Source of the DNA: Octopus vulgaris
Taxonomy: Eukaryota
DNA length: 64,000 nt
NCBI GenBank assembly: GCA_951406725.2
Contig: OX597817.1
Coordinates: 105,896,001-105,960,000, forward strand
Direction of reading: 5' to 3'
The number at the start of each line of letters is the position of its first letter. Position 1 is the first letter of the stretch. The position numbers and the translations under genes are program-made. The notes beneath the pieces were generated by a model. The model made no database searches. It saw only the letters and a list, made by a program, of their open reading frames with translations, and was not told the origin of the DNA. Below, in pieces: positions 1,582 through 51,450 of the stretch.

Positions 1582-1624
1582 CCACTACAATTGTTTCTTG
1601 TCTTGATCGACAATCTTCAGGTGG
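1582..1624 (-). ncRNA. Minimal type-I hammerhead ribozyme motif (family A)
   Basis: Exact reverse complement of 4465-4507. Confidence 0.85.
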
Positions 1625-3880
1625 ACTTCCAATCTAAAAAATCAATATTTTAAAATATAAAAATAATAATTTTAAAATAATTAAAGTATTAATGAAAAAT
1701 ATAAATATATAATCCATATATAACCTATATATAATCCATATATAATCAATATATAAACAATATATAAACTAAAATAAACCTATCAACAATTAAATATAAA
1801 ATATAAAATATAAAATATAAAATATAAAACAAAACAAAAAATAATAATAATATAATAATAAACTATATATACACCCATACACATATAACTAATTATATAT
1901 AACCATATCTAACTACATACACTAAATCACACACCTATATATATATATCCCTATACATACACATAAAAACGTCTAGGCAACTATAAATAAATAAAATAGC
2001 TAAATACTTCAACACAATACTTATTCATACTCCCACACACACACATACAACCCACAATCTCGCTCTAGAAACGGACAACACTTAAAATTATGAACGGAGA
2101 AATGGAATAAATGGAATTAAAAATTATATTCACTTGGTAAAACGAACACTACTTAAAAATTATGAATGAAACAATGCAATAAAACAACAGACATCGCAAA
2201 TAGACACAAATTACTACGAATTCCTTAACAAACCTACCATGATAAACCAAAACTCATAAAAACATATAATGATAAAATCTCCCTTTACTAAACTCTATAA
2301 CATACCTATATAGCAATCCCCCTAACCTAAACATTCACACACAAATACACACACGTAAACCACACACCCACGACATATACAAATACCCACCCCACTTACA
2401 CATACCTATACATACATATAAACCTCAACATATACTCCAAAAACCCACCCAACCCCACACAGACAAATAAACACATACATCCCCAAACCTAAATAGCAAA
2501 CCCATAAACACATTCACACACAAATATACATACGTAAAACACACACCATATACATATACATACTCACCAAACTCGACATATACAACAATATTAACACACC
2601 CACATTCATACAGATAAACAAACTACACAACCAAAATACGCACACACTCACACACATACATAAACACTCCAAAGAAAAACAACATTATTACACATAATAC
2701 GATATATAAAATACATCGTAAGTAACCAGAATATCAAAAATAATAATATGACATAAGGAGAAATAATATACATACTTTCAAGTCAGTTTCAAATTATGAA
2801 GTGAAATTAAATTCTAATCCGTTAAAAACATCAAACCAAATTACGTTACCATAGGAACATAACTTATGTATAAAAAAAGAATACGCTCTATGGAAGCAAA
2901 CCTCACTTAAAATTATGAATGGAGAAATAGAATAAATGGAATTAAAAATTATATACACGCGGTAAACCAACATTATTTAAAAAAATTATGAATGGATTCT
3001 TTTATAAAACTACCATGATAAACTAAAACTCACAAAAACATAAATGATAAAACCTCCCTTTACTAAACACTATAACATACTTATATAGCAATCCCTTTAA
3101 CCTATACATTCACACACAAATACACACACGTAAACCACACACCCATAACAAATACAAACACCCACCCCACTCACACACACCCACAAGTACATATAAGCCT
3201 CAACATATACACCAAACAAAATTACGTTACCAAGGAACTTAACATATGTATAAAAAGTATTACCGCTCTGTATACGAACATCTTTTAAAATTATGAATGG
3301 AGAAATGGAATAAATGGAATTAAAAATAATATTCACGTGGCAAAACGAACACCACTCAAAATTTATGAATGAAACAATGTAATAAAACAACAAACATCGA
3401 AAATAGACAAATTACCACGAATTCCCTAAAAAAACCATGATAAACCAAAACTCTTAAAAACATATAACGATAAAATCTCCCTTTGCTAATCTCTATAACA
3501 AACCTATATAGCAATCCCCCTAACCTAAACATTCACACACAAATACACACACGTAAACCCACAGACCCACGACTTATACAAATACCCACCTCACTCACAC
3601 ATACCTATACTAACTTATAAACCTCAATATACACCAAAAACCCACTCCCTCCCCACGCAGACAAATTAACACATACATCCCCAAACCTATATAACAAACC
3701 CATATACACATTCACACACAAACACACACACACGCAAAACACACACACACAACAGATACATATACTCCCTCACATATACGCATATACATACTCACTAAAC
3801 TCGATATATACAACAATATTTACACACCCACACTCATACAGATAAATAAATTATACAACTAAAAACTCACACACAATCTC

Positions 3881-4335
3881 ATGATCTCGCTACTTATGTG
3901 CTCTCTCAACGAGATACCAAGCATTGACCTTTCCATGGCTCTTTGAGCCGTTACCAGTCTTTGCTCTTCTCTCTTTGTGGTAGCCCATGTTTCACTACCA
4001 TATAACATTGCAGGCAGAACTGCACTGTTAATGAGGTTGGCGCGGGTGGTCCTGTCCAACCTTCCTTTGAGCACATCCCTTATGCCATTGAACGCCTTCC
4101 ATCCGGCCCTTACTCTCCGTGAGCTCCTTTTCGATATCTCGGCACATATTTACTTCCTATCCCAGGTAGACGTATTCCCATCGACCTGTTGGTACGTTGT
4201 CTGACCGCATGAACTTTGTTTTCATGCGGTTCATCTTGAGACCTACTGCAGAGCTTTTGATGTCGAGCTCCGTCAGCATGGTCTGAAGCTGATCCCTGTT
4301 TTCAGTGATGAGTACGATATCGTCAGCGAAACGTA
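3881..4335 (-). mobile_element. Partial duplicate of the adjacent RTE LINE fragment
   Basis: Matches about 4974-5455 apart from a 27-nt deletion. Confidence 0.9.
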
Positions 4336-4464
4336 TATATTGATTATATATGGATTATATATAGGTTATATATGGATTATATATTTATATTTTTCATTAA
4401 TACTTTAATTATTTTAAAATTATTATTTTTATATTTTAAAATATTGATTTTTTAGATTGGAAGT

Positions 4465-4507
4465 CCACCTGAAGATTGTCGATCAAGACAAGAAACAATT
4501 GTAGTGG
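4465..4507 (+). ncRNA. Minimal type-I hammerhead ribozyme motif (family A)
   Basis: CCAC-CTGAAGA-TTGTC(GATCAA)GACAA-GAAA-CAATTG-TA-GTGG: stem I CCAC/GTGG, intact core, 5-bp stem II, palindromic stem III, GUA cleavage triplet. Confidence 0.88.
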
Positions 4508-4601
4508 CGGTTTTTTTGACTATTTATTAAAATTTTATGTATTGATTAAGTCTTTCCTTGTTTGTTTTGCAAAATAGTGGTTTTGTCTCTAATAATATTT
4601 T

Positions 4602-4666
<65 letters not shown>

Positions 4667-4671
4667 TATAT

Positions 4672-5605
<934 letters not shown>

Positions 5606-7240: not shown

Positions 7241-7481
7241 GCCAGTGGCCTAGCATGTATAAAAAGTAAATAGATAACATATTCTCCATATAAAATTAGT
7301 GTACATTTAAACACAAAAGAGGCGACCCTTAACAGGCAGCCTTACATGCTAGAAGGAGCAGTCAAAACGACCAATACTAAATTTAAGAGCAGCAAATGAA
7401 AAAATTTTGTGTTTAATGTACACTAATTTTATATGGAGAATATGTTGCCTATTGACTTTGTATACATGCTAGGCCACTAGC
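7241..7481. repeat. Inverted repeat pair, about 78-bp arms (MITE/foldback)
   Basis: gtggcctagcatgtata...gtacatttaaacacaaaa versus ttttgtgtttaatgtacac...tatacatgctaggccac. Confidence 0.8.
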
Positions 7482-7593
7482 AATGAAATTTCTAAAAAAA
7501 AATTCGCTATCCTATATTTTACGTATATGAAATTCAAAGCTAGCCAGTTTCAAAAACAGCCGGATTTCTGAATTCCGGATGAGAGGTTCGGTA

Positions 7594-7630
<37 letters not shown>

Positions 7631-7632
<2 letters not shown>

Positions 7633-14866: not shown

Positions 14867-15357
14867 TCAAAATAAGCAACAGGGTATCAAGTAATAATGC
14901 AGTATGTCCATTTAATTGAACAATGGAATTATTACATCAATTTGAATGTGATTCCATCTTCAGCTGCACAAATAAATAAATGGAATTTTAACAAGTCGTA
15001 CACAGTAATATAATTTTTCTTAAATATTTTAACAGAGCAAGAAGATAGAAGAAATTCATGTCGCTATTGTAGCTAAGAATAGACTACATCTTCTGAGAAT
15101 TGCATGGAGCATAGTAGGGTCATAGGGTTGTATGGGTTGTAATTTATTTCTAATTCATTTATCTCTTTATCAACTACTATATATACTATAATACACACAC
15201 GCGCGCGCGCTTTTCGCTGTCCATCCACCAAGCCTCAGTCAAAGTTATTTACCAATTTCATTTTTTTAATTTCACTTAAGTTCAGCTACATATCTACTTG
15301 TATATCTATTAACATATCTCTCTATCTGCATATCTGTTGATATATTTGTAAACTCAC

Positions 15358-15941: not shown

Positions 15942-16735
15942 GAAAATGGAGAAACATACTTAAATCAATAAAACATCAACTATCAGATGATACCCAATCA
16001 ATACTTTATTACACCATTACATATCAGTAAAGGCATTATACAAAATATAAAGTAAATATAAATAGACAAGGAAATAGAAATATAAAATATAAAATATAAT
16101 ATGTAATTATATCATATCTGACAGCTGTTTCGGCAGTAAGGGCAGTCATACCTATTTTAACCTATAAGCCATAAAGGCAGGTATAAATGAGGCATTAACA
16201 AGGATGCCACACGGCCTCTTCAGAGAATTTAATTTGTTATAATTGTTAAAAAAATTATTTTTCCATATACATATAAATATAAAAATATAAAAATGTAAAA
16301 TATAAAATATAAAAACTTGTGCATAAACTCCATAATGCTACACATATATAATACTCATTGATACAATAATGCAAGGTAAACAAAACAAAATAAAACAAAA
16401 TATATATCAGTGTATATATTAATATTAATAAGCACAGTTATTTTACATATTTAGCTAATAGTTCTAAAAACTAACACATAGGGAGATGTATGCGCACTAC
16501 TATTTAAATTAAAATCATCCCTATACCTGAAAATAATAATAATAAAAAAAACCATAGTTCAGTTCATAAAATTATAAGCCTATAAAAGTCAATATAAATT
16601 ACTATTAATATTAATAAAAATAATAATAGATACAGTTAAGTTAGCACCAAGTACATCCATTCAAAATCGAAATAACTATGAGTTTAGTTTTTCTGTCCGC
16701 TTGATATTGATTATTCTAGATTACTCCGATTGGCT
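15935..16735 (-). mobile_element. PLE-like terminal fragment with hammerhead B
   Basis: AT-rich block bounded by (TA)n on both sides, contains hammerhead motif. Confidence 0.55.
16117..16226 (-). ncRNA. Hammerhead ribozyme motif (family B) with long stem-II insertion
   Basis: Minus strand TCT-CTGAAGA-GGC...GCC-GAAA-CAGCTG-TC-AGA; GUC triplet; palindromic CAGCTG; stem I only 3 bp. Confidence 0.7.
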
Positions 16736-16753: not shown

Positions 16754-16871
<118 letters not shown>

Positions 16872-17023
16872 CAATTAAGGACTGAACACGAAAAGTGGAC
16901 AGTCAACATGCTAGATATAGACGTCAAATCGCCATTCTCCACAAAAAGTCTATGTTCTCAGATCAAACTCAACACAAAACCAAAGCAATAAACAAGTGAA
17001 AAATATACGAAATAAATATTTAC

Positions 17024-17089
17024 CCATGTACTAAATTTAGTTTCGGCTGTTATTTTCCGCAAGGAAAAGTGCAGCCATCATCAGCATGG
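17024..17089 (-). ncRNA. Hammerhead ribozyme motif (family C)
   Basis: Reverse complement of 17428-17493. Confidence 0.8.
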
Positions 17090-17427
17090 TCCCATATAAA
17101 ATGTAATTTGCTGTACTAAATGCCAACACGATACCGAAATATCGCGTGCATGGAGTACGGCCTATTACATTTGAAATATATATTTCAAATGTCTTTATTT
17201 TGGCGCGATGAGACCCGAGAAAACTAGCCTGCAGCTAATAGTTAGCAGCAGTTAATTTATCGGTTAGAGAACAAATATTTATATAAAATTAAATTTAGGG
17301 TAAAAATTGATATTTATCAATTAGAACCAGTGGTCTAGCATATTAAAAGAACGAATCCGTACTCCATGCACGCGATATTTCGGTATCGTGTTGGCATTTA
17401 GTACAGCAAATTTCATTTTATATGGGA

Positions 17428-17493
17428 CCATGCTGATGATGGCTGCACTTTTCCTTGCGGAAAATAACAGCCGAAACTAAATTTAGTACATGG
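17428..17493 (+). ncRNA. Hammerhead ribozyme motif (family C)
   Basis: CCATG-CTGATGA-T-GGCTG...CAGCC-GAAA-CTAAATTTAG-TA-CATGG: 5-bp stem I, one extra U before stem II, 10-nt palindrome in stem III, GUA triplet. Confidence 0.82.
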
Positions 17494-17735
17494 GTAAATA
17501 TTTATTTCGTATATTTTTCACTTGTTTATTGCTTTGGTTTTGTGTTGAGTTTGATCTGAGAACATAGACTTTTTGTGGAGAATGGCGATTTGACGTCTAT
17601 ATCTAGCATGTTGACTGTCCACTTTTCGTGTTCAGTCCTTAATTGGTACATATAAATATTTTAATCTTCGGATTCTTTCTTTTAATATGCTAGACCACTG
17701 GTTCTAATTGATAAATATCAATTTTTACCCTAAAT

Positions 17736-17776
<41 letters not shown>

Positions 17777-17883
17777 AAAATTCAGGGTGAATACTTGATA
17801 ATTGTAAGCACCTGTATATACCATTTAGTGGTGTAGGTGATAGAGTATATTAATCAAAATGAAAACATGATGCCAAGGATTCA

Positions 17884-17961
17884 GCGGTACATATGTTTCG
17901 GGCCTTTATTAGACGGTTTTATAACAATGCATAATGTGTGTCTATGGCCTTCTTCAGCCGC
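17884..17961 (-). ncRNA. Hammerhead ribozyme motif (family D)
   Basis: Reverse complement of 19287-19364. Confidence 0.78.
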
Positions 17962-19286
17962 GTACAATTACTACTTCAAGGACATGTATTACATTATAAG
18001 TTTTACGTTGGGGATGCAAATCTTCATAGTCGCGTACGACAGAGTGGGGCACCAACACAAAAACGAAGCGTCCATCCCGTCTTTCACTCGATGTAGTATG
18101 AGGAAGTTTGGATGTTGAGATAGAGAGGGAAGGGGTTGGGGAGGGTTGAATCTTTAGTGAGTTAGAGATCACAAAGAGGGAGGGTGGTGGGTGCAAATGG
18201 TAGTAAAAGTGTAAAAAATTACAAAAGAGTAAAAATTTTAAAAATATATAAAAAAGATATAAGAATATTAAAAATATATAAGAATATAAAAAAAAGATAT
18301 AAGAATATAAAGAAATATATAAGAATATAAAAAAAAAGTATCTAAGTATATAAATATATAAATCAATATATAAATATATAAATATCTAAATACACACAGA
18401 CGTGAAAAAAAACATGGTAATATAAATAAATAGGGATAAAGATAAAGCGAGAACTGAGGACGAAAGAAAAAAATAATAAGGATAAGGGATATAAAGGGGT
18501 TAAGAACTAACATGGTGGTCAGAAAGATGACATATTCCGGTTGTTGAAGCCTACGAGCGTAATGGCGGGTGTCATAAATCAACTAGAAAGTCTGGAGATC
18601 AAGTATATGGTCAATTTCGGTTGTCTGGTTTGTGGCTAAACAGTTTATCTACTTCCTCGTAAATTGTCTTTGTTACTAGTGGTCAACATGTACATACGTA
18701 CACGCATGCATACATATACACATATACACATACACATACCCACGTATACACATCCACACGTATATATACATACGTACTCTCGTGTAAAAATACCGACAGG
18801 GGTACGCATATACATACGTCCCGCTACGTACGGATACCTAAGCTTGCACCAGCTAAATACATAAAAGCAAATACAATAACCTGCCTCTGCATACGCACTC
18901 GTATACACACAAATACATACTCACGCATACATATGTAAAGCCCGCCCGTCTACCCACTTATATACGTATATGCGCACATACATAAATATCTCAATATACA
19001 CATACATACGGAAAAAGGTGCATGTAGTTGGGTACAAGAACTGACGCGCATACGTACGTATACACATACACGTACCTACGCACATACAGACACACTCACA
19101 CACATGAGAAAGTAAATCCCTATGCTTATGGACAAAGATATGCATACACCTACACTCACGCCCACACTCACACACATGGGGGAGTTTTTGTGTTGGTGCC
19201 CCACTCTGTCGTACGCGACTATGAGGATTTGATTCCCAAACGTAAAACTTATAATGTAATACATGTCCTTGAAGTAGTAATTGTAC

Positions 19287-19364
19287 GCGGCTGAAGAAGG
19301 CCATAGACACACATTATGCATTGTTATAAAACCGTCTAATAAAGGCCCGAAACATATGTACCGC
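19287..19364 (+). ncRNA. Hammerhead ribozyme motif (family D)
   Basis: GCGG-CTGAAGA-A-GGCC.TAGAC...GTCTA...GGCC-C-GAAA-CATATG-TA-CCGC; A.C mismatch at base of stem II; palindromic CATATG; GUA triplet. Confidence 0.8.
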
Positions 19365-19415
19365 TGAATCCTTGGCATCATGTTTTCATTTTGATATATA
19401 TACATATATATATAT

Positions 19416-19531
<116 letters not shown>

Positions 19532-19770
19532 TAACAATTGAGGATAAAATCTTTAAAAGAAATTATCAGTAGTCAGTGTGAAAAACCTCGTAAGAGAAAA
19601 AATCCGTAAATTCTTCCTCTTTGAAAATATTCATTTATATTATATTGAGGGTACTACTATTCGTAGATACCATCACGCTAAGAGGGACCAATGCGGTCAA
19701 AACTACTAAAAATAAACAAAATTTTACCGAATGCAAAACTTCAAAACACATCATTTTAAAAAAGAATTCA

Positions 19771-19834
19771 GTTACATATCACATGTGATTTCGCATTTAA
19801 TGCAGAATATGCATTTCATGTTCATCAGTGCAAC
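19771..19834 (-). ncRNA. Hammerhead ribozyme motif (family E), tandem copy 1
   Basis: Minus strand GTTGCA-CTGATGA-ACAT.AATGCA...TGCATT.ATGC-GAAA-TCACATGTGA-TA-TGTAAC; 6-bp stem I with one G.U; 10-nt palindrome; AUA triplet. Confidence 0.8.
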
Positions 19835-20269
19835 AAACTCAAGAAATATAAGAGAAAAACATAACATTACAAGCTCGATAGCCAACCGTAGAATTCGTCG
19901 TAGCATGTACGAATGTTTATCTTTACATATCTATGAAAATGGCGGGCTTATTCGCAATGCATTTCGATAACAAATTGTCTAGTCGGAATAAAAATTCAGT
20001 ATTGAACTATTCCGGTGAAAAATATAAATTAACAATTGAGGATAAAATCTTTAAAAGAAATTATCAGTAGTCAGCGTGAAAAACCTCGTAAGAGAAAAAA
20101 TCCGTAAATTCTTCCTCTTTGAAAATATTCATTTATATTATATTGAGGGTACTACTATTCGTAGATACCATCACGCTAAGAGGGACCAATGCGGTCAAAA
20201 CTACTAAAAATAAACAAAATTTTACCGAATACAAAACTTCAATACACATCATTTTAAAAAAAGAATTCA

Positions 20270-20333
20270 GTTACATATCACATGTGATTTCGCATTTAAT
20301 GCAGAATATGCATTTCATGTTCATCAGTGCAAC
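20270..20333 (-). ncRNA. Hammerhead ribozyme motif (family E), tandem copy 2
   Basis: Same motif 499 nt from copy 1. Confidence 0.8.
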
Positions 20334-20735
20334 AAACTCAAGAAATATAAGAGAAAAACATAACATTACAAGCTCGATAGCCAACCGTAGAATTCGTCGT
20401 AGCATGTACGAGTGTTTATCTTTACATACCTATGAAAATGGCGGGCTTATTCGCAATGCATTTCGATAACAAATTGTCTAGTCGGAATAAAAATTCAGTA
20501 TTGAACTATTCCGGTGAAAAATATAAATTAACAATTGAGGATAAAATCTTTAAAAGAAATTATCAGTAGTCAGCGTGAAAAACCTCGTAAGAGAAAAAAT
20601 CCGTAAATACGACGAATTCTACGGTTGGCTATCGAGCTTGTGACGTCGATAATCGCCTGGGGCTAAATGCATCAGTAACACCCCCACCACCCTGCCCTGT
20701 CCCTAGCCACATTCAGATGGCTGATGCCCCTTATG

Positions 20736-25196: not shown

Positions 25197-27975
25197 ATGT
25201 ACATGTATGGAGAAACAGGGGAAGGATGCAGGTTCGCTCATCCCAGGCCCTATGGAAATTGCATCAAACCCACTCGACCAAAATGCCTTAACCAAAACCA
25301 GAACAAATACAAGCTGCCCCAGAAATATGCAGACATAGTGCGTAATGCCCCAACAAGGAGAAGGCGCACATTTGCAGAGGAAATGCAGACGGCGGCAGCA
25401 GAACAAAGAAATTTTGTGGAAATGGCAGAGAAAATTGTGGGACAACTGGCCTGGATACATCGTCTTCAGAGCCAGGGGCACTCACAACAGCACTCAAGAC
25501 CACCACAATCAAGGGACCCAGGGTGGCCACCGCTGACGCCGGCCCAGGTGCCACACCGTCAGCCTTTATTGACACCCCGGGTGTCTCACCAGTGCTTCAA
25601 CTTAGTAGAGGTAATGATATATGGTATGAGAGAGTTAGTTGAGACGCAGCCATTAGAAAATACCACAGGCCTATCCAGTCTAAACTTCCATAAGGCAAAC
25701 TGGAAGAAGATCAACGAAGAGATCCGAAAACATGACTGGAGTGACTTCATCACCACACAAGACACCAACACACATTTCCAACATTTCATGACAACAATAC
25801 AGAACATATGCCATAAGTTTGTCCCGGAGAAAAAAGCCAGCGGGCATAGGAACGTTATTCCCAGAGACAGGAAAATACTTATGAGGCGAAGAGCTAAGCT
25901 CTCGAAGCAACTGAATACACGGCAGAGAAACAATGAGGGACTCCACCTGAAACTTTTGAAACGGAAACTGCACTCAAACTTTCCTATGAGAAGGAGAGGG
26001 CAGAGAGAGAAGCCAGGGCCATAGAGAATATTAAAACAAACCCTAAAGCCTTCTTTAAATTTGCGAAAGAAACCACCTCGGTACACTGCAAGATTGGCCC
26101 ACTCTTTGATAAAAAGGGCTCTCTAACTGAGGACCCCAAGGGATAAGTGAAATACTAAAGGAACAGTATAAAAGTGTGTTCACATCCCCTCTGGGGCACA
26201 TGCAAATCACAAACCCAGAAGTTTTCTTTGATGCCACAACACTCCAAAACCAAACAACAACCATCGACCACATAGACATAACAGAGAGGGATGTAATATC
26301 TGCCATAGAAGAAATGAGAATAAACTCAGCTGCTGGACCAGATGGATTCCCAGCAGTCCTCCTAAAGACATGCAGGCATGCCCTAGCGGGACCACTGAAG
26401 AAGCTCTTCAGTGGTTCCTTGGCTAACGGTAAACTGCCCAGGGCGCTAAAAGAAGGCACCATATGCCCTATCCACAAAGGAGGGAGTAGAGCAGAGGCCA
26501 AAAACTACAGGCCAGTCTCCCTGACGTCACACATAAGTAAGGTCATGGAACGAATCATCAGAAAAAAACTGATCACGTTCCTCGAAGAAACTAACCGTCT
26601 CACTGACACACAGCATGGCTTTCGCCCAGGAAGAAGCTGCCTTACGCAGCTGTTACAACACTACGACTGGGTACTGAAACAACTACTGGATCGCTCACAG
26701 GTGGATGTGGTATATCTCGACTTTGCGAAGGCCTTTGACAAAGTCGACCACGGAGTGATATGTCACAAATTACTCAGACTCGGCATAACAGGAAAAGTAG
26801 GTGAGTGGATACATGACTTCCTGAAGGACAGAAGCCAGATGGTTGCAGCCAATGGAGCCCTCTCGGGAAAGACACCAATAGCAAGCGGGGTGCCACAGGG
26901 CACAGTCTTGGGACCCTTGCTGTTTTTGGTGGCGCTCTCTGACATGCCCTTGGTAGCACAAACAACATCCCTCACTAGCTATGCTGATGACACAAAGGTA
27001 GCACAGGCAATCAAAAACCCAGCTGATGCTGACCTTTTACAACAAGATCTGGATGCCATATACAAATGGGCTGAAGACAACAATATGCAATTTAATGCTG
27101 GTAAATTTCAAGCCTTACAATATCAAGCTGTAAACACATATACATTACAACACAACTATACTGGTCCAGGAGGGATCGAAATCCCAGTATCGAAATCAAT
27201 ACGGGACCTGGGGATAGACATGAGTGACGATGCATCTTTTTCTTCACACATCGCGAAGGTGGCGACAATGTGCAGACGACTCACTGGCTGGATCCTGAGG
27301 ACATTCCGGACAAGAGACTGCGAGACCATGTTGACACTATGGAGGACATTTGTCCTAAGCCGCCTGGACTACTGCTCCCAACTGTGGTCACCGCATAGTG
27401 TCAAACTAACCACAGAGCTCGAGACAATCCAAAGACATTTCACCAAGAGGATTTCCACCATGAAAGAAAAGAACTATTGGGAGAGGCTTAGGGAACTCAA
27501 TTTGTACTCCTTGGAACGAAGACGAGAGAGATATGCAGTGATATACATATGGAAAATCCTGGAGGGACTAGCACCAAATTTTGGAATTGAGAGCTGTTCC
27601 AATCCCCGTACAGGACGTCACTGTGTGGTGCCAAAGGTCCCGTCTTCCACATCCAGGGTAAGGAGCAGATACTGTAATAGCCTGGGGTTCAGGGGCCCTC
27701 AGCTTTTCAACAAACTGCCAAGAAAACTAAGAGATCTACATGATGCGGATGTGGACATTTTCAAAAAACATCTAGACAAGCTGCTTTCCGGGATCCCAGA
27801 TGAACCCACTGCAAGGTACGAAGGTAACCTAAGGGCAGCAGCTACAAACTCTCTCTTAGATCAGTGGCCAGCCACGGCAAACTGGACTTAGAGAGGGTAG
27901 CAACAAGGGCGGTGCCCCAGCATGGCCTCAGCCGGATGGCTGAAACAAGTAAAAGAGTAAAAGAGTAAAAGAGTA
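25197..27975 (+). mobile_element. CR1/L2-group LINE, internally deleted, inserted inside a SINE
   Basis: ORF1-like remnant (C.YG..GEGCRFAHP), linker LNFHKANWKKI, RT ORF, 3' tail (GTAAAAGA)3; SINE halves at about 25130-25196 and 27976-28160. Confidence 0.9.
26176..27891 (+). CDS. LINE reverse transcriptase (ORF2 C-terminal part, 571 aa)
   Basis: AAGPDGFP, NYRPVSLTSHISKVMER, QHGFRPGRSC, YLDFAKAFDKVDH, SGVPQGTVLGPLLF, YADD, SRLDYCSQLWSP; upstream part frameshifted, endonuclease absent. Confidence 0.93.
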   Translation: MFTSPLGHMQITNPEVFFDATTLQNQTTTIDHIDITERDVISAIEEMRINSAAGPDGFPAVLLKTCRHALAGPLKKLFSGSLANGKLPRALKEGTICPIHKGGSRAEAKNYRPVSLTSHISKVMERIIRKKLITFLEETNRLTDTQHGFRPGRSCLTQLLQHYDWVLKQLLDRSQVDVVYLDFAKAFDKVDHGVICHKLLRLGITGKVGEWIHDFLKDRSQMVAANGALSGKTPIASGVPQGTVLGPLLFLVALSDMPLVAQTTSLTSYADDTKVAQAIKNPADADLLQQDLDAIYKWAEDNNMQFNAGKFQALQYQAVNTYTLQHNYTGPGGIEIPVSKSIRDLGIDMSDDASFSSHIAKVATMCRRLTGWILRTFRTRDCETMLTLWRTFVLSRLDYCSQLWSPHSVKLTTELETIQRHFTKRISTMKEKNYWERLRELNLYSLERRRERYAVIYIWKILEGLAPNFGIESCSNPRTGRHCVVPKVPSSTSRVRSRYCNSLGFRGPQLFNKLPRKLRDLHDADVDIFKKHLDKLLSGIPDEPTARYEGNLRAAATNSLLDQWPATANWT

Positions 27976-28304
27976 TGTGCGCGTGTGTGTGTCCATCACC
28001 GTTTGAGAACCGGTGTTGGTGTGTTTACGTCCCCGTAACTTAGCTGTTCGGCAAAAGGGTTCGATAGAATAAGTAATAGGTTTAAGAAATAAGTCCTGGG
28101 GTTGATTTGGTCGGCTAAAACTCTTTAAGGCGGTGCTCCTGCATAGCCGCAGTCAAATGCAAATTACGTTCATTATCACTGGCATGGTAGAATAGGAGAT
28201 GGGAGAATGTGAGTTGTATTAAGAGTAGACAGACGGTCGATGACAAGATGGAGATAATGGTTAAACATACCCTCCATAAATAGGCAGATATACACGAGCA
28301 CCTA

Positions 28305-29831
28305 CAGTGGGTGGGTGAGGCCTTAAGGGACTACGAAGCGGTGGCAGGAGCGAAAGTCAACCGGGATAAATCGGTCGGCTTGCAACTCGGCACCTGGAGG
28401 GGCAAGTCGATGTCTTCCGACAGCGTCGTAGGACGTTGGACGGAAGGACCGGTGAAAATGCTTGGGATCTGGTTAGGTCCAGATCTCCAGATAGAGAAGA
28501 ACTGGAGCGAGGTGGCGAGAAAGATGGCTCTCCTAACTCAGACATGGTCTGAACGGAATCTGTCCTTGAAAGGGAAGGCGGAGGTTGCAGAAGTGTTTAT
28601 CGCCTCTGTAATCACTTACCGCCTAACCGTAGTGCCTTGCCCCGATTCGTGGCTGAACAAACTGGAACGCATGCTCTTTCGCTTTTTGTGGAGGGGCAGC
28701 AGACCTCTTGTAAGGCGCTCTATTTGCTGCCAAAAGCCGCTGAACGGTGGGTTAGGGATGCCGTGGCTAAAAATGCGCAGACATGCGCTCAGGCTTAGGC
28801 ACCTCTGGATTTACCTGGACGGTGAGCAGGTGTGGTCTCCGTTTGTCAAGCTGTTATTTCCACAGTTCACATCGTTTAACGAACTGAACCCATGGATCAA
28901 GTGTAGACCGAGGTTGGGCATGTGGCATGCAGAGTGCTATCAGGCACTCGTGCTTCTCTCCCAGTCGGGCAACGCCGGTGGCGGGGCTACTACCGCGTTC
29001 TTCTATAGAGGGTTAGTAGAGTTTAAGTGTGACGACGTCCTAGGAGAAACTCTGGGCTTCGACGAAAATCAACTGGCCAGCCTGTTCCAAAGAACATTCG
29101 GTCCGGGGCCTATGGATAATTACCAAAAGTCCCTGGCCTGGCAATGTTACAGAGGAGCTTTACCGGTTCGAGATAAGCTCTTTAGACATGGGTGTGCACC
29201 TTCGCCGGTTTGTGCAAGATGTAAGAGGGACAGTGAAACTGTCCTGCACGCGATTGTGCAATGCCCCAAGGTGACTGAACTCTGGACTTATGTCGAACAC
29301 CTGCTGTCGCATTCGAGAAGAGTACAACTGTCGAGCGAATCTGTAATTAAGATAGTTCCGCCGACCTTCCTGAATAGGGAGGAGCGAGCCTGTTTTCTTT
29401 CGGTAGTTGCTATGGCGAAAGAAGTAGTGTGGAAGACGAGAGTAAAAGGAATTGCAACAGGCATGTTTATCTCCAGTCTCGAGCTAATCGACTTTTTCGT
29501 TTTCCACATGAAACGGAAAATAAGGCTGGAGAAGAAATGCCTGTCGCAAAGTGTGTTTCGTAAAAGATGGAAGTCTATAGCAAGTATGTTGCGAGTGAAA
29601 GAACCTATTTAATCGAGAATGTAAAAAAGGATAAAGCAAAGTCTTAAGTGTGAGTATGTGGTTTGTGGGGTCGACCGCGTCCTCCGCTTCATTTTTTGTT
29701 AATCACTCATTCTCATTTAATTGTATATATATTAATTGTTTGTTTATTCATGTTTCGTCTCATTCGATACCCTGACCCCAACGTTTGTTTTGTCCCCTCT
29801 TTTTCTCAACCTTATGGTGAATAAAGAAATA

Positions 29832-34799: not shown

Positions 34800-35479
34800 T
34801 TTTATTACTTTATTCTTTCATTTGTTTCAGCCATTTGGCTGTGGTCATGCTGGAGCACTGCTTTACAGGGTTTTTCAGTCGAAGAAATTGATCCCAAGAC
34901 TTATTCTTTGTAAGCCCAATACTTATTCTTTGCCCCCACCAACGTTGGTTGTCAAACGATGTTAGGGGGTAAACACAGACACACACACATACGCGCGCGC
35001 ACGCGCGCGTATTATGTATATATGTATATGGTGCACTTTTGCGGTTTCCGTCTAAATTTGTCTAACACAGTGGTTCTCAACCATTGTTTTTTTTAATCTA
35101 TGGACCCCTTTGATCCCTATTTTACTCGGTTGGACCATTGTAGTCATTCAATGTTTACAAAATTCTATTATATATTTTAGAATTAAATATTATTAGGAAT
35201 TGTATAAAAGAAATTGCTTAAATATTTTGTGTATAACCAATTTATTATCTTTTGTGCTTTATCATTCATCTTTTACTTGTTTCAGTTATTTGGGGCACCG
35301 TCTTGAAGGGATTCAATCGAAGAAATCGACCCTGGGACTCTTTTTTGAAAGCTTGATACTTGTCCTCTTGTTTCTTTTGCTGAACCGCTAAGCTACGGAG
35401 ACGTAAAAACACCATCACCGGTCGCTAAGCGGTGATGGGAAACAAACACAGACAGAGACAGAGACACACACACACACGA

Positions 35480-36190
35480 CAGAAATTTAAGATCAAATCT
35501 AACTTTACTTGTGCCTCTGAAAACATAATTTATGTTATTAAATGCTCGGGCTGCCACCAAAACTACGTGGGTTCCACGGGACTATCACTCAGGCGCAGAT
35601 GCACACTGCATCGACAACAGATTGCATTCCCAGAATATAGAATGATACCTTTTAGTGAGCACATTGAGAAATGCGCAAAGCAACTACTGCCACAATTTTT
35701 AATCTTCCCATTTTACCAATGTGCTTTCGGATCATCAACACAAATGAGACTGAACAAGGAAACATTCTTCATTGAAAAGTACAAACCCAGACTCAACCAT
35801 CCGAACATACTGACACAGAGAAATTAACAAGGAAAAGGGAAAAAAAAAAAAAAAAATTTTTAAGCGATTATCTCCCCTACACCGGAAAAAATCACTCACT
35901 ACCTCCCCTTATTTAGAAATCTCCTGGAAATAAAAACAACGATAATTCCATGCAATATAAACATAACGTCACAAGAAATTTGAAAAGCTACACGCGAAAC
36001 CGGTAATTTCTTTAAAAATTTTAAAATTATGTCATTTTAAGGAAAGGGAAAAAAATTTTCCCAATATTCTCCAGACATTTTGACACAAATATATATATTT
36101 TTTAACATTTAAGCCTTCTGTCGTTTTTTCACACTTTACTATTTTCTTATATATTCACCCACGTGCTTTACCAAACAAACTTTCTTATCT
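35480..36190 (+). mobile_element. Penelope-like element 3' fragment (GIY-YIG endonuclease)
   Basis: FTCASENIIYVIKCSGCHQNYVGSTG.SLRRR...H...RLNKETFFIEKYKPRLN; hammerhead remnant about 145 nt after the stop. Confidence 0.9.
35973..36012 (+). ncRNA. Degenerate minimal hammerhead (family F) downstream of PLE GIY-YIG ORF
   Basis: AAGAAAT-TTGAAAA-GC(TACAC)GC-GAAA-CCGG-TA-ATTTCTT: 7-bp stem I and palindromic CCGG, but the core has two substitutions versus CTGANGA. Confidence 0.6.
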
Positions 36191-36759: not shown

Positions 36760-37335
36760 CAGAACAAAAGTAAAACCACTGAGTTGGCTGGCTGCGTGTG
36801 GGGTTTGAAGTCTAACGCCACAACACATACAATAAAGTGGAAAACAGTTGAAAAGTCCACACTATATGTCAACGGGTCAAAATATTTAAGCTATGCAGAG
36901 CTGAAAGAACACAGATCTTTTTCAGATCTAAGAGCTGTACCGCACCGCTGGATTTCAGATCTGAATATGTTCCTGTTAGCGAAATTGGAAAGTACCTTTC
37001 TCTCTGGATTGAGCAGCTGTACCACAAACTCTAGGCTACCATCTTTTCAGCCTTCAGTCATAACTCTAATTCTCCCTCACCACCACCACCTTTTGTTTTT
37101 TCTATTTGCTTTTTTGTTTTTCGGTTTTTCAACCTTACACCTTTTACATCTACTTCCTTCTCGCCTTTTGTGTTTTTATTCTCATATTGTCGTCTTGTTT
37201 TCAGCTTGTCATACTTTGTGGACACAGCCTGAAGATTGCGCTAAAGCACCAGATGTGTTGAAAAATGCTGTCTGATCTGTTTTCATAGCATGACACAAAT
37301 GGTATCTCATTAAGATTTACATTGTATTTATTAAA
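36760..37335 (+). mobile_element. Degenerate PLE 3' fragment
   Basis: TELAGCVWGLKS...IKWKTVEKSTLYVNGSK resembles the C-terminal part of PLE GIY-YIG domains; ACAGC-CTGAAGA...GAAA...GCTGT remnant at 37224-37271. Confidence 0.5.
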
Positions 37336-40094: not shown

Positions 40095-40905
40095 TTCTCC
40101 TTTGAGTTTTATCGAAGTTCTCAGAGTTCAAGCCGGTCACTAACAAAGTGATATGGCTTTTTGAGTTAAGAGAGTTCCCGTATTTGCAAATAATTGGATG
40201 AGTTAGTGTGTTGGTTGAGCTGTTGATGCGCACACTTGAGTGTGTGCATCGACGGTTCAACGAATAGCCAAGTGTGTGCGTCTAAAGAATCTCAGATGAA
40301 GAATCTTTGTAATGTCTAATGAAACTTTACTGCGTCGCTAACAGATTGGATTTGGAGAATCCACGTCAGTTTCTTTTGCTCTTTCTTCGAAAGATCAAAT
40401 ATTTCGAGGGTTTTTTTTAAAGGTAAATTTGTATGTACATAACCTAGTGCACCTATGATGATAGGTACAAGAAATGGTCGACAATCTTTCTTCGGTTGAC
40501 TATTATGTATGAACATTTATTTTTCCCAAACTCTCTTCCTGTCTCGTGAAAATGTTGTGACTAGATCCAATTGTCTCTTTGTGTTGTTCATGTTGCCACA
40601 ACATAACTTTAAGTTCATCAACAAAAAATGTGTTGCGCGCATGATTTTTCTTTTAGTTTTATCTAAGTTCTTAAGAAAGTACAAATCGGTCGCTAACAAA
40701 ACGACAGGACTTTTTGAGTTAAGAGAATTCCCGCTGTTTGTAAATACGTGGTTAGCTTGGTGATTTGGTTGAGCTGTCGATGCACATTATGTATGTATGT
40801 TATTATTCAATGTTACTTCAAAATTTCTTGCTAATAGAGAAAGAGCCGGTTTCTAACCTTGATCCAAGGCTCCTTCACTGGAATTTCAAGAACATCAGCA
40901 GGGTA
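40095..40905 (-). mobile_element. R4/Dong-like LINE 3' fragments in (TATG)n
   Basis: LVPIIIGALGYV...LKKTLE...LQIQSV resembles the restriction-like endonuclease tail; 3'-UTR-like block repeated at about 40100-40235 and 40650-40785; (TATG)n on both sides. Confidence 0.55.
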
Positions 40906-42613: not shown

Positions 42614-43033
42614 GATTAAAATAAGGTTGTGTGCATTTATATTTTTAACATGTTCGTGTACCTTCAAACATAGAAAGACAATCACGACGTTAAGTATCTA
42701 GGAAGAGAAATTCTCCTTACAGAGAATGTATGTAAAAACACGCCGAGTTAGCCGTGAATTACGTCATCAGATTGTAGGACGCGTGTTTCTGCGTCGTTAC
42801 GTTTCATCAGCAACAAGGAATCTATCGTCCATAGTCTACTAAGAACTACCGCTCTTATATATACACAGTAAACAATAAATTTGCTGGTGTGTGTTAAGTT
42901 TTGTCAGCAAATTTATGAACGGCAGTTTTACAAAAAAAATTTTCTTCCCAGGCATTTACCGCAGCGTAAGTCTTTTTATATTTGTGTGTACACGAACATG
43001 TTAAATATAGATGTCCGGAAACTTATTTTAATA
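42614..43033. mobile_element. MITE-like element with about 45-bp inverted arms
   Basis: attaaaataagg...ttaacatgttcgtgtac versus gtacacgaacatgttaa...cttattttaat. Confidence 0.5.
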
Positions 43034-45334
43034 GCCTATTATTAATTTGGAAAATAAAAGTTTTTATTGCCTTCCTATTTTTTCAACTACCCAACAAGAA
43101 TTATTTCTATTAATTATCTTGACATTATTGCGAGTATTTCGAAGTTACCATCTTTAGCTTTAGTTTTTTCAAACGCTATGTCCTTCTGAAATGCAATCAG
43201 CTTATCAAGCGAAATGAGAATATTTTCCACTTTATTTTGCATATTCTCATAATTTTGGGTACTACTTGTAACTACACTCTTATGGACACAGGAACAAATT
43301 TTAACAATTTTACAAACTAAAATCCCGATATGCTCATATGCGTATTTTTTTTCTTTCTTAGAAATAATATATATTTGATTTATCAACTTAATACTTCCGG
43401 CCACACATCTTGACATTTATTTTCCTGTCTCCATTCTCTGTACATTTTTGCTCTTACAGCCTACCAATTTGATTCTTTCGACTCATGTTTTCTCCTACAA
43501 TCATTTTTCTTATTACTTTCAACGTTCTTACTAGGAACAACCTACCCCCGCCTCCTAGACGCACATTGTTTTGTGTACATCAATTCGTCCATCCTTCGAC
43601 AATACTATTCCATCCCTTGCCGTCTCTCATTTCCATTCTTGCACCCGAAGACTACAACTTTTTGCTGACGTAGAGTGAACATATTTTGTGAAAAGTATTA
43701 TTTACCCTACTAAGCTATTCCTGTTATTAATTTCTTAATGCATTTTTCTAACGTTTTAATGCATGTACACCCTGTACTGTATGTTTTTTTAATTTTTTTC
43801 CGTCGGAAAGCATCTCAGTCTATGACATGAAAGTCAATGAGAAAATGGGTTTCATGTTACTACATTCTATGTTACGGCGACATTTTTAGGAATGCAGCTT
43901 TTCCAAAATGTGAGGTATGCCCATATTTCTGTTGGCACTGTTAACATGTTTATATCTCTTACACCTTTCTTCTTAACAGTTATATGACTTTTGTGTGTAA
44001 AACTACACTTCTACTATGAATCCACATCGAAACAAATTTGTTCAAATAAGCAAGTCTTCAATGGAAAATAAACATTCCAACAACTTCGTCGAAAATATAT
44101 TTTACATTCATCTACTAATGTTTTTAAAATGTGCAACTCCCTTCGGAGAATACAATGCATCTCCATAACACTACGCTTATGCTGTTTTATGAGTGATGCA
44201 AACCTTTTATAGAGCTTACGCGGATGGAGTCCCAGTAGAACAAATTCTGATCATTCTGATGCTTGACTTCCATTTTTCAAAGTCGTCAAATATATTATGA
44301 AAGACACCTTAACCTCTCATTGGGTATGGCAATTTTTTTTCTTTTGTAGTCAAAAAGAACTGCTTTATAATTTGGTCTCCATCAGCAAAGCAAAGAAATG
44401 TAATTATGCTTTGTTACCAATGTCAATTGATTCATTAGCTTGCAAGCAGATTCTGAAGTTTATTCCGACACCTTACATCTTTCTTATCTAACAGATCCAT
44501 AACTCGTTTAGAAAAGATATTATTTGAGAGTGGAATTTTTGTCCTCTCTTAATTTCTAACATTTTTTAAACAGCTTTCTAAATGCGGGTAAAATTGATTC
44601 ATGCAAAATGTGTAACTTTGCGTTTTGTACCACCATTCTGCTCTCTCAGTATAAGCGATCTGAGCTTTTCAGAAAGTGATAACCTTTGTTATTTTTTACA
44701 AATAGTTTCTGTGTTCTGATTGGTTTTCCTGATAATGTTCTTGTAACGAGCTTAGCGTGTGTGAATATCTTCGTGCACTTTTGGGGTGCACAAAGCAATC
44801 ACTCACTAGCCGTTGCTTTAATAATCCAGATTCTCTACAAGTCAGAAACAACAAGACGCAGACGTAAAATATACATATAACTACTTTATTCTCTTTCTTG
44901 GTAAACAATAACAATAAGTGTGTTATCTGATGTCCTAGGTTCGGGCGCGCACCGCTATAAGTTAATAGATTGTAATATTTACAATGTCCAGCCCTAAACC
45001 AGAAAGGGGTCAAGATGGCGTCGAACAATGGAGACGATGTTGGTCTGCAACAATTTGGTAAGGACTGCTAGAAGCTAGTTCCAACGGAGAGAAAATATAT
45101 CGCGTGACGTCGCCTTCAATCGCTGGGTCCCAAGTCCCCGCTGCTGCTGGACGCTGGTGGTCAACGTCTTACGACCCCCTTGCCTCGGCTAACTGCTACG
45201 TAGGCAAAAGGGTTCTTCTTCCGGTGCTTCGCGCATGCGCGAGAGGGCCCTTCCTTTCTGTGCCTTGGTGAAGGCACCAACACGCGCGAAATACAAATGG
45301 TCGGTGCGCGAGCGCGCGTTATAATATCACTACA

Positions 45335-45348
45335 AGGCTCCCCTCCAG
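45335..45348 (-). promoter_or_regulatory. Polypurine tract
   Basis: Minus strand CTGGAGGGGAGCCT immediately before the 3' LTR. Confidence 0.7.
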
Positions 45349-46867: not shown

Positions 46868-46887
46868 GAATCACGTCGGGGTCACCA
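46868..46887 (-). promoter_or_regulatory. Primer-binding site complementary to tRNA-Trp 3' end
   Basis: Plus strand GAATCACGTCGGGGTCACCA matches the animal tRNA-Trp 3' end including CCA; 2 nt from the 5' LTR. Confidence 0.88.
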
Positions 46888-48861
46888 CTTGTAACGAGCT
46901 TAGCGTGTGTGAATATCTTCGTGCACTTTTGGGGTGCACAAAGCAATCACTCACTAGCCGTTGCTTTAATAATCCAGATTCTCTACAAGTCAGAAACAAC
47001 AAGACGCAGACGTAAAATATACATATAACTACTTTATTCTCTTTCTTGGTAAACAATAACAATAAGTGTGTTATCTGATGTCCTAGGTTCGGGCGTGCAC
47101 CGCTATAAGTTAATAGATTGTAATATATACAATGTCCAGCCCTAAACCAGAAAGGGGTCAAGATGGCGTCGAACAATGGAGACGATGTTGGTCTGCAACA
47201 ATTTGGTAAGGACTGCTAGAAGCTAGTTCCAACGGAGAGAAAATATATCGCGTGACGTCGCCTTCAATCGCTGGGTCCCAAGTCCCCGCTGCTGCTGGAC
47301 GCTGGTGGTCAACGTCTTACGACCCCCTTGCCTCGGCTAACTGCTACGTAGGCAAAAGGGTTCTTCTTCCGGTGCTTCGCGCATGCGCGAGAGGGCCCTT
47401 CCTTTCTGTGCCTTGGTGAAGGCACCAACACGCGCGAAATACAAATGGTCGGTGCGCGAGCGCGCGTTATAATATCACTACATTCTGAAATAATTCAAGT
47501 GCGTAACCGAAATAAAGATAAAGATGATCTTTATCAGTGGAACTAAGGGTTACCATTGTGCAAATTTTTATGACTTCCTTACACTGAGCTAACCAACACT
47601 TGTTTTCTCAGACTCTAATTTTTCTCCGAGGAAAGGACGTTGTATTTTCTGGTCGAATTGACTTTCATGATTCATTATACTAATTTTACTCTGATATGGC
47701 CCTGGATTTGATTTCTCTTTGCAGCATTTTAAGCAAGTATCTTCTGCCAAGGCTCTTAAGTGAAATTGGAAGACGAATACTATTTAGCGATGTGAAAAGG
47801 TGAATGTGGCTAAGGTTCAGGTAATATTATAATCTTCTCATTTCAAACGGGTCATGATAAAGGACATCAAGAAATACTAAAACACAAGTTAAAGTTGGCG
47901 GCCACATTTATTTCTCCGCTAATAGAAGATACAGCACACTGGTACACATGAATAATTCTGTTAATAAAAATACATTGGTTTCTCGTGCAGCTTCAAAATG
48001 ATGTGCTCGGGAAAAACACATAGCATGGCGACAAAAATCTCTTCTGACAATTCTCTCCTCACTGAAAAGCATAGCGGAATAAAACTTGCTCTATGCCAAA
48101 GATCCGAACTCCATTGTGACGACCCACCCCACTGAAGAAAATAGCGAGGTAAGGCACCTTTAAATAGATAAGGGTAGGTTCAAAATGGAGCAGTCTGATT
48201 GGATGGCTTAAAGCATCCAATCGGCACGAACGGGTATGGTCGTGTGAAGTTTGCAGAACGGTGATGACCTAAAATGTGTGTACTTAAAGGTAAACTGTGA
48301 ACATGCTAGCTACAACTGTACAAACGCTCCTATACCCTCATATGAAAGGGTGCGAGAGAGTGGCATGCAGGGAGGGTGATGATGTTAAGTTGTCACTGTC
48401 CCGGAAAGTATTGGAAGATGTGGAGGGAAAACAGTAATATGCGAGGTGTATTAGTGGAAGTGGGAGGATTGAGAGCGTTGCGACGGAGACGATGGAGAGA
48501 GCGTTGGGGCCCGTCTGGAAGAATGTAACATGCCTTGCCAGATGAAGCAGATACGGAGTGATTGTAGTTCGTTGCAGAATGATGGGAAGGGCGAAAGAAT
48601 GCGCAGTGGATCCTTTAAGATCGGAAAGGGTGGTCCTACTGCCCATGTGTCTTGGAGGAGGGACTTCCAGGATTGGGGTGGAGGGAATCGTCCTTGAGTG
48701 TACTTACGTACATTTCAACTATTATAAACTTTTCACATTCCAAACACTTCTTGATTCCCTGCTTTATGTATTATTTATGTATATATACTTGCATCTTTCT
48801 CCAACACCAACGTCCCATGTGATAGGCTTGAAAATTGTTAAGAGATACACCTCTCTTTATA

Positions 48862-51450
48862 TATATAGGGAGGATTCACAAAAAACACAGAAGACGAAGA
48901 CAGGTGGTGTAGTCAACAAACAGATATATTAGTTTAACGCTCGGGAAGTGAAAAAGTCTTTAACGTTTCGAGCCTACGCTCTTCCACAAAAAGGAACGCA
49001 GAAAGAAACAAGGACAGAAAATAAAGAATGTGTAGTGGCAGAGCAATCTATCATGGCGAATGCCGAACAGAGGGGTCACACAGGAGAGCTAGGAAGAAGG
49101 GGAAATAATAAAGTAGTGGTGATCCCAAAACGAAGGTGCACGTGTGTATGAGAGCATGTATGTGCGTGTGGAAGGGGGCTGGTGACCTTGACGTGTGCGT
49201 GTGTGTAGGTGTGTGGATGATGGTATGGAGCTGGGAAGTGGTGCTAATGTGAGCGTGGTGGTGTGATGTGGTGTTGTGTGGTATGGTGGTGTGGTGATGT
49301 GTGGTATGATGGTATTAGGATGTGGGGGAGGCGAGAGTGGGGAAAGCAAGGGTGGGGTATGGATTAGGCTGAGGGTGAGAGTAGAGGTGGAGTATGTGGG
49401 TTAGGCTCAGGGTGGGGTATGTGGGTGTGGGTGTAAGGGATGGGGTGGGGTGGATGGGATAGATAGGGAATGTGGGGTTGGATTGTGTGGGGGTGGGGTT
49501 ATGAGGGAGGGGTGGCAATGTAGGGAGAGGTGGGTAGGAGTTAAGTGAAGAGAGAAGGAGAGTAGGAGTGAAGAGAAGTAGGAGTCGGAGCAAGAGAGGA
49601 GAGGTGGATGGGAGGAAATAGGTGTGAGAGGGAGAGAAGAGAGGGGAGGACTGTTAGATGAAGAGGGGAGGAGAGTTGAGCCCATGTGGGGCAAAAGAGC
49701 GAAGAGAGAAGATTAATCCTTGTTCACGGCGCAAACGGGAGTCCGAATGGCCCCTGTGCAAGGACAATCCGGACACAGACAGGTGTTGCAAAGAGTGACC
49801 GGTAGAGCGGAAATGGTGCGAGACAGGGGTGTCATTGCCGAGTCGGATGTCTCGGAGGTGTTCCACGAACCGGTCAGCCAAGCGGCGTCCCGTTTGCCCG
49901 ATGAATAGAGAAGGGCAGAGAGAGCAGGAGATGCAGTAGATGACATTGGTAGAAGTGCAGGTGAAGGAGTCGGTGATATGATAGGGTCGATGATGGGTGC
50001 CGGTGAGGAGGGTGGTGTTGGAGAAGTAAGGGCAAGTGCGGCAGCGTGGGCGGTTGGGTTAGGGAAGAAGCTGTGGACCAAGAGTTCTCGTAGGTTGTGG
50101 GCTCGTTTGAAGGAGGTGAGGGGTCAGTTAGAGAAGATGTGCGAAGTGGAGGGTCGGACTAGGGTCGCCGGAAGGCTCGGAGAGTGGTGCGTTGGAGAGG
50201 TAGAGTGGTGGGGTGGTAGGTGAGGGGAAACGGGAACGGCGGGATGGGCGCGGAGGAGAGAGCAGATGCTCGGTCCATGGAACGTGCTCTGGCAAGGGCG
50301 GTGTGGATAGTGGTAAGGGGATATCCACGTAGGATGAAGTGGCGAACCATGAGTTGTGACTGAGTCTCAAAGTCATGGTAGTCACTGCAGAGCCTGCTTA
50401 GACGGAGGAATTGGGAACAGGGGAGGGAAAGCTTGATGTATTTAGGGTAGGAGGAGGAGAAGTTGAGGTATGAATGTGAGTCTGTGTGTTTGCAGTGGAT
50501 GGAAATGGTGAGAGTAGAGTGATGACTGCTGACCGAAATGTCAAGAAAGGAGACAGAGATAGTGCAGAAGTGAAGGACAGGATGGAAAGATTTGACAAAA
50601 GAGAGGAAGGAGTCTAGATGTTAGCGGGAGAGTGAGGTCGTACCGATACAGTCGTCAATATAACGGCCGTATAATGGGGAAAAGTTAAACCGGTCCACAG
50701 CGCGCTGGCAGGCGCCCGCAAAAAGATTGACTGCTGGCGTCCACTGGGATGGTTGGCAGCCCAGGTCGGTGAAGCAGTCCTCCTCATTAGATGCTGGTGG
50801 AGTGTCGCGGAAAAGCGCACACAACCTAATAAGGCGCACAAAGCTGTGGATATCGGTACGAGTCCGAAATTCGTTGCTGGATGGAAGGAAGGGAGATGAA
50901 GCGCAGACCCCTACAGAAGAATGAGCGCTCCGCCTCAGAGAGAAGAAAATCTGGAGGAATGGTAACAACAGACTGAAGTGGAGAAGGGGTGGATGGGATA
51001 GAAGTAGGAGGCGTGGTGGGGATGGTGGAAGGCTGGGAGAGAGGGATGGATGTATGTGTGTGAGGGGTTTGGTGAGCGTATCAGGGAGGGTGAGAGTAGT
51101 GGAGTTGGGGTAGTGGCATCGGGTGTGATGGAATGGAGGAGTGAGTGGAGTTTACATTGTTTGGTGTGAGCAAGAAATTAATGAAAGAGATAATTTAAAT
51201 GAATTATGTAACGTAACGTAGTGTTTGCATGGAAGGGTGACTGAGAGGAGAAGATGGTCGATAGTGTGTATTTTGGAGAGATTTGAACGAATGGTGGCGC
51301 TCATAAGGCGGTAGAATGTAGTATGGAGTGTGGGTAGGATGGTTGTAGCAGAGTGGAGAGTGGGGGTAGAAATGGAGGCAGAAACCTTTAAGGATGAGGT
51401 GGTGATCCAAGCAGCAACTGAGAAACGAAATGTGACTACAGAAACGAGTT
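48862..51450 (-). mobile_element. Penelope-like element, frameshifted and internally deleted
   Basis: N-terminus RFCSHISFLSCCLDHHLILKGF; RT motif YGRYIDDCIG; thumb HFILRGYP; GIY-YIG tail ADRFVEHLRDIR...PVSHHF...RREQGLIFSLRSFAPHGLN; hammerhead-like 3' end next to TA repeat. Confidence 0.9.
48957..48994 (-). ncRNA. Hammerhead-like motif with variant or decayed core at PLE 3' end
   Basis: Minus strand CTTT-TTGTGGA-A-GAGC(GTAG)GCTC-GAAA-CG-TT-AAAG; stem II, GAAA and stem I present, CUGANGA box non-canonical. Confidence 0.5.

Follow-up and report, generated by a model that had tools for sequence, protein, structure and literature searches.

Type I hammerhead motifs with palindromic stem III in Octopus vulgaris: likely dimer-type ribozymes at the ends of Penelope-like elements

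A 64-kb window of Octopus vulgaris DNA (64,000 nt of contig OX597817.1), consisting of microsatellite-rich animal DNA with numerous retroelement fragments, contains 11 type I hammerhead ribozyme motifs that belong to seven families, A to G, and were located by descriptor scans and inspection. In all seven families stem III carries a palindrome, placed between the GAA and H17. Judging from sequence and folding models, it is quite probable that these are type I hammerheads, likely sited in terminal repeats of Penelope-like elements (PLEs), whose palindromic stem III likely serves only the double hammerhead formed by two identical copies. The initial annotation had credited every family with a palindrome of its own (CAATTG in A, CAGCTG in B, CATATG in D, CCGG in F and CG in G), and this was borne out in seven of seven; its wording "every hammerhead" holds for A to G but not for a decayed eighth candidate, the loop of which is non-palindromic. 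The families represent seven single insertion events, and their paired copies are near-identical duplicates. Palindrome coordinates given below include A15.1 and U16.1; the palindromes of families C and E are 12 nt with these two residues and 10 nt without them.

1586-1620 (-): family A hammerhead, core C3 to H17; palindrome 1587-1594; 4-bp stem I; U10.1-A11.1 replaces G-C
4469-4503 (+): family A second copy; palindrome 4495-4502; within inverted 271-nt arm
14890-14975 (-): decayed eighth candidate; CUGAAGA core, stems I, II and III and UH kept; GAAA lost; non-palindromic stem III loop
16120-16223 (-): family B hammerhead; palindrome 16121-16128; 85-nt stem-loop II; 3-bp stem I
17029-17084 (-): family C hammerhead; palindrome 17030-17041; textbook core; minimum-energy fold is the hammerhead
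17433-17488 (+): family C second copy; palindrome 17476-17487; within inverted arms
17888-17957 (-): family D hammerhead; palindrome 17889-17896; 51-nt stem-loop II
19291-19360 (+): family D second copy; palindrome 19352-19359; within inverted arms
19777-19828 (-): family E hammerhead; palindrome 19778-19789; within 499-bp tandem repeat
20276-20327 (-): family E second copy; palindrome 20277-20288; same strand, 499 nt upstream of the other E copy
35980-36005 (+): family F hammerhead, U3-A8 core variant (UUGANAA); palindrome 35999-36004; 7-bp stem I; 2-bp stem II
48962-48989 (-): family G minimal hammerhead; palindrome 48963-48966; no loop 3; degenerate core

The core CUGANGA...GAAA...UH, or its U3-A8 covariant, is present in families A to F (10 of the 11 copies) and is surrounded by stems I (3-7 bp), II (2-5 bp or more) and III. 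The family G copy lacks the consensus core, having U3 with G8 and a U at position 6. The G10.1-C11.1 pair is found in B, C, F and G, is shifted by one base in D, is U-A in A and is not adjacent to the core in E. An extra base follows A9 in families C, D and G, family D carries an additional C preceding the GAAA, and the 3-bp stem I of family B competes with the core. On inspection family C provides the sole clean textbook copy, the others departing in stem I, stem II or core, and several copies in the window are probably dead fossils. In the eighth candidate stem III is a hairpin of 5-6 bp with a 6-nt loop, in a region that forms an imperfect 18-nt palindrome.

A first strict scan caught only family A, and the descriptor was then loosened. 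With a descriptor blind to the palindrome, nine of the 11 CUGANGA-core matches had a palindromic stem III of at least 6 nt, all of them in families A to E, while 150 block-wise dinucleotide shuffles gave a mean of 0.047 such matches and a maximum of 1; the earlier claim that the folds are real is supported. Moreover, the central 4 nt are palindromic in the six of six families having a loop, against a background of 8% of the 4-mers of the window. Family F is the one UUGANAA match with a palindrome out of 26 (0.1 expected), which is weak on its own, but support comes from a stem I of 7 bp and from the remnant of a GIY-YIG domain lying upstream. As a group the 26 UUGANAA matches were discarded, their number being inside the shuffle range (mean 11.6, maximum 26). 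Family G was missed by the palindrome-blind scan because its core is broken. Rfam returned no hammerhead match at the gathering cut-off in the window, and no hammerhead among 42 matches with E up to 10 between 15.5 and 21 kb; this result was not taken as defining because the published minimal motifs were found by RNAmotif descriptors (PMC4209133).

Three further candidates were rejected. The look-alike GAAACGTA at 4328 and 5448 is, by eye, coding sequence of a reverse transcriptase (RT)-like fragment on the opposite strand; the GAAA-CCGG at 40840-40860 (-) is without U16.1 and stem I; and the CUGAAGA core at 37229 (+) has no hammerhead fold, with a possible 5-bp stem I and no usable stem III. 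The last one follows a frame at 36770-36960 (+) which by eye resembles the C-terminus of a PLE endonuclease, and the two together are perhaps a further decayed PLE end; an Atlas search with this frame gave no match.

Host elements of the motifs

The 3' end of a PLE open reading frame (ORF) is adjacent to two of the seven families, F and G.

35468-35809 (+): remnant of a PLE C-terminus with decayed GIY-YIG endonuclease; family F lies about 170 nt downstream
49657-51151 (-): decayed PLE ORF; contains GIY-YIG and a YIDD frame resembling RT; family G lies downstream

The GIY-YIG remnant beside family F aligned to that of family G by tblastn (E 1e-7) and reached 20.2 bits in Pfam (E 7.6e-4), under the 22.6 cut-off. 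Family G lies about 670 nt 3' of its decayed RT-like/GIY-YIG ORF, the GIY-YIG part of which scored 0.96 in the Atlas against eukaryotic GIY-YIG clusters and fell below the cut-off in Pfam (E 0.026); the RT pieces of this ORF had no Pfam match, and a PDB sequence search with the GIY-YIG of G yielded 0 matches.

For families A to E a PLE origin is deduced from the layout, because no coding remnant is recognised there. Families A, C and D occur as inverted pairs with arms of 220-320 nt: the arms of A (1485-1755 and 4334-4604; 271 nt) are 100% complementary, and those of C (16858-17177 and 17340-17659) and D (17845-18064 and 19184-19403) are 97% complementary. The two family E hammerheads are carried by two units of a tandem repeat with a 499-bp unit (19524-20608, 2.2 copies), (TA)n runs flank the family B element, and most families abut (TA)n. 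Both (TA)n targets and inverted copies truncated at the 5' end are among the PLE traits described in PMC8557442. The ends of families C and D are highly repeated, with 555-2375 records aligned per run in four runs bearing four organism labels. Taken together, the motifs likely sit in the terminal repeats of several PLE families.

Some of these insertions contain other structures. The family C insertion (16858-17774) is by eye a nested inverted structure in which 17250-17340 is mirrored at 17650-17740. Between the inverted arms of family A an RT-like fragment is duplicated (3877-4333 and 4970-5455, 300 nt at 100%), an arrangement suggestive of capture through a template switch in the course of insertion. 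Upstream of family A, 2.1 kb of C/A-skewed non-coding sequence (1756-3876) with internal repeats of 146-174 nt may be a long 3' untranslated region or the body of a non-autonomous element.

The features described here closely match the hammerheads of metazoan PLE pseudo-long terminal repeats listed by Cervera and de la Pena in 2014 (PMC4209133), which are type I, have a short stem I and show a palindrome in 15.2-16.2 plus loop 3; their consensus is given there as "GAAAN Palind NU H" (Fig. S3). Dimer cleavage, the extra base after A9 (here C, D and G) and the U3-A8 variant (here F) are also published for that set, and the many families per genome, the opposite-strand pairs and, for F and G, the position 3' of an RT-endonuclease ORF are shared as well (PMC4209133). 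Families B and D differ from the set in their long loop II insertions. Reviews describe PLE hammerheads with palindromic short loops that cleave as dimers (PMC6765202, PMC6466107), and the short palindromic stem III, the dimer cleavage (predicted here) and the tandem layout agree with these variants. As judged from sequence, families A to G are probably new members of this described dimer-type class. They stand out in one respect only: the palindromes of C and E measure 10 nt, whereas none of the 56 sequences listed in PMC4209133 exceeds 8 nt, in a list compiled by means of a minimal descriptor and skewed towards short motifs.

Folding and the proposed double hammerhead

The double-hammerhead model reportedly goes back to Forster et al. 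in 1988, and Lunse, Weinberg and Breaker (RNA Biol 14:1499) are said to have treated PLE hammerhead variants cleaving as dimers. In the folding calculations stem III as a monomer hairpin ranged from 0.0 to +6.0 kcal/mol, and as a self-duplex from -1.7 to -15.8 kcal/mol. Unconstrained co-folding of two copies placed stems I and III in trans for families C, D, E and F; in C and D the co-fold equalled the constrained double hammerhead (-50.0 and -37.6 kcal/mol) and the homodimer lay 10.8-11.8 kcal/mol below two monomer folds.

These models suggest the following mechanism. One transcript would cross two tandem terminal repeats, with stem II folding inside each copy and stems III and I forming between the two copies; each core would then cut the other copy after U16.1-H17, and the RNA would be trimmed to unit length. 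The protein of the element would probably assist, as protein-assisted hammerhead cleavage has been described for a PLE (PMC11167929). Stem III must be self-complementary because the two partners are identical, and the sequence of the palindrome would otherwise be free, drifting by symmetric changes as families diverge. The preference of like for like would come along as a side effect, arising both from the divergence of helices I and III and from cis pairing.

Variation among copies provides a hint on this point and is not a covariation test. Contigs of four runs were aligned to families C and D only, and 40 of the 92 substitution rows and 12 of the 33 indel rows were covered. None of those 40 substitution rows fell inside stem III of C or D. 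In family C a central 2-nt deletion that leaves a shorter palindrome was present in contigs of three of the four runs, and a 1-nt deletion breaking the palindrome in one of the four. A look-up of 17340-18200 among RNA records yielded none, a result that speaks neither for nor against expression.

The 1-nt deletion in family C is the first of several observations that weigh against dimer-type hammerheads of PLE ends. Only one of the eight folded motifs clearly beats its shuffles (C, z -2.2), and in the homodimer models A, B and G misfold, with stem I in trans at 0.08, 0.00 and 0.01. No coding remnant is recognised near any of families A to E. Within the window only family E could dimerise in cis, because it alone has a same-strand pair; families A, C and D have their two copies on different strands, and families B, F and G have one copy each. 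Family E could alternatively be a tandem repeat of the non-LTR (long terminal repeat) retrozyme type. These retrozymes also carry a type I hammerhead in each tandem unit, and a PLE origin has been proposed for them (PMC7229834; bioRxiv 10.64898/2026.07.22.740005). The family E repeat, known here from DNA, differs from them in its 499-bp unit (150-450 bp in the retrozymes) and in having only 2.2 copies. In an active PLE no RNA-seq ends coincide with the cut site, according to PMC11167929, and the monomeric hammerhead fold carries no energy penalty in C and D.

The latter point bears on the possibility that the long-palindrome families (C, E and perhaps D) cut as monomers; the palindrome would then chiefly provide a hairpin closed by a tetraloop, with dimers optional. 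The hammerhead is the minimum-energy fold in C and D only, stem III of C and of E can close into a tetraloop hairpin of 4 bp (0.0 and +0.4 kcal/mol), and invertebrate retrozyme hammerheads with a 2-bp stem III are reported to cleave well as monomers (PMC7229834). However, a monomer has no need of a self-complementary loop and all six loops have one, the homodimers of C and D are favoured by the energies given above, and the monomeric arrangement is impossible for G and implausible for F. Hence it is unlikely.

The palindromes of families A, B and D have the E-box-like form CANNTG, and the palindromes in general might instead be DNA sites for protein binding or integration at the element ends, the ribozyme fold being incidental. 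Consistent with such sites, and again counting against a double hammerhead, hammerhead mutants did not block PLE insertion in vitro, where cleavage was thus dispensable (PMC11167929). The palindromes are nevertheless placed exactly between GAA and H17, next to cores whose stems I and II are paired, and this holds for seven sequences unrelated to one another; moreover, one family D contig (run X7) differs at position 7, which is the free position of the core. A role as DNA sites is accordingly very improbable, and the double hammerhead of identical copies continues to be preferred.

Stem III and the choice of partner

The initial annotation had also proposed that the palindrome acts as a family-specific pairing code, by which only like copies dimerise. 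What stands of this proposal is homodimer pairing and the predicted lack of heterodimers; what does not is the palindrome itself as a selected code. The contrast between homo- and heterodimers was predicted in silico, stem I forming in trans with probability 0.00 in 42 of 42 ordered hetero pairs and stem III with at most 0.12. Palindrome swaps were modelled on nine hand-picked pairs of the 42. Exchange of the palindrome restored stem III in eight of nine and stem I in none (predicted 0.00 in trans in nine of nine), so that the palindrome is predicted to be insufficient to switch partner. With a swap of stem I only, stem III was never restored (at most 0.07 in nine of nine), and when both parts were swapped stem III reached at least 0.91 and at least one stem I junction at least 0.66 in all nine models. 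The palindrome as a code of its own is not supported; the double hammerhead needs a second helix, stem I, in trans.

A stronger version would hold that co-expressed families were driven to different, longer palindromes against cross-pairing and cross-cleavage, a self/non-self code like that of the HIV-1 dimerization initiation signal. Some features agree with it. All seven palindromes differ, the two 10-nt palindromes exceed the published maximum, stem III contributes 38-68% of the trans helix energy, and the failure of stem I-only swaps indicates that the palindrome is predicted to discriminate. Furthermore, B, C and D share the GGC/GCC bases of stem II, and in a dimer with swapped stem II, which is pseudoknotted and outside the folding model, stem III would be the main filter. 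The HIV-1 signal is a precedent for a short RNA palindrome that biases partner choice (PMC3187697), although it works like, and is not homologous to, the hammerhead palindromes: it is a kissing loop for packaging and not part of a catalytic core, and its discrimination was measured whereas that of the present families is predicted.

Against selection, the diversity of the palindromes is what chance would give. Seven all-different palindromes are expected with P = 0.95 for random palindromes of these lengths, and with P = 0.37 when variation of the three 6-mers is confined to the centre. The set is no more orthogonal than random ones: cross-pairing is weaker in 97% and 99% of 400 uniform random sets of palindromes than among the actual seven, and with position 15.2 fixed the values of 21% and 20% are within the null. 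Families A, B and D share the outer three pairs, and their hetero helices (-5.3 to -6.3 kcal/mol) compare with the -5.8 kcal/mol of G's own helix. In addition, stem I by itself blocks the 1.1-2.1 pair in 29 of the 42 hetero combinations, and family C contains two palindrome lengths. In the published list 54 of 56 stem III sequences are palindromic (Fig. S3, three rows ambiguous) and 29 of the 56 families have the same dinucleotide, CG, unlike the seven different palindromes found here; of the 11 listed genomes that hold at least two families, eight have a palindrome occurring more than once, and Aedes families 1 and 3 have an 8-nt one in common (PMC4209133). In the literature within reach, which excluded subscription papers and bioRxiv supplements, neither a test of a family code or of heterodimers nor these hammerhead families in octopus were found.

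On these models the pairing code is likely a by-product and a selected code is unlikely, with odds we would put as low; the differences between families most likely reflect drift. By analogy, where many Penelope families are expressed side by side in one genome, dimerisation in trans might be a two-key self/non-self lock made of stem III and stem I; longer palindromes would have been selected so that no family but their own could cut, or perhaps co-mobilise, truncated or short non-autonomous RNAs, an idea that seems improbable. Were selection for mutual avoidance true, it would give PLE hammerheads a function. As drifted by-products, the families would be seven unremarkable additions to a class described in 2014-2016. 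They nonetheless offer a natural panel of dimer-type hammerheads with palindromes of 2 to 10 nt, predicted not to cross-react, which could probe stem III length versus the switch between monomer and dimer and the action of PLE ribozymes in trans, and which might also be put to use as RNA switches that are orthogonal and depend on concentration.

Other features of the window

Non-LTR retrotransposon remnants are located at 26131-27891 and 28284-29612 (+), with matches to RVT_1 (E 1e-30) and zf-RVT (E 3e-9). Near-identical direct repeats at 44740-45330 and 46888-47480, about 2148 nt apart (99% over 300 nt), are probably the LTRs of a young, internally deleted LTR element. A long inverted repeat at 58100-58230, with arms of about 60 nt by eye, adjoins (TA)n and is possibly the end of a fold-back element. 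A repeat family resembling short interspersed elements (families D8-D11) has many copies, at 6785, 11079, 21568, 24005, 37672, 51477 and 60632. Short stretches resembling host-gene exons, with splice-like ends by eye, occur on the (-) strand at 54690-54755, 57110-57265 and 58670-58840.

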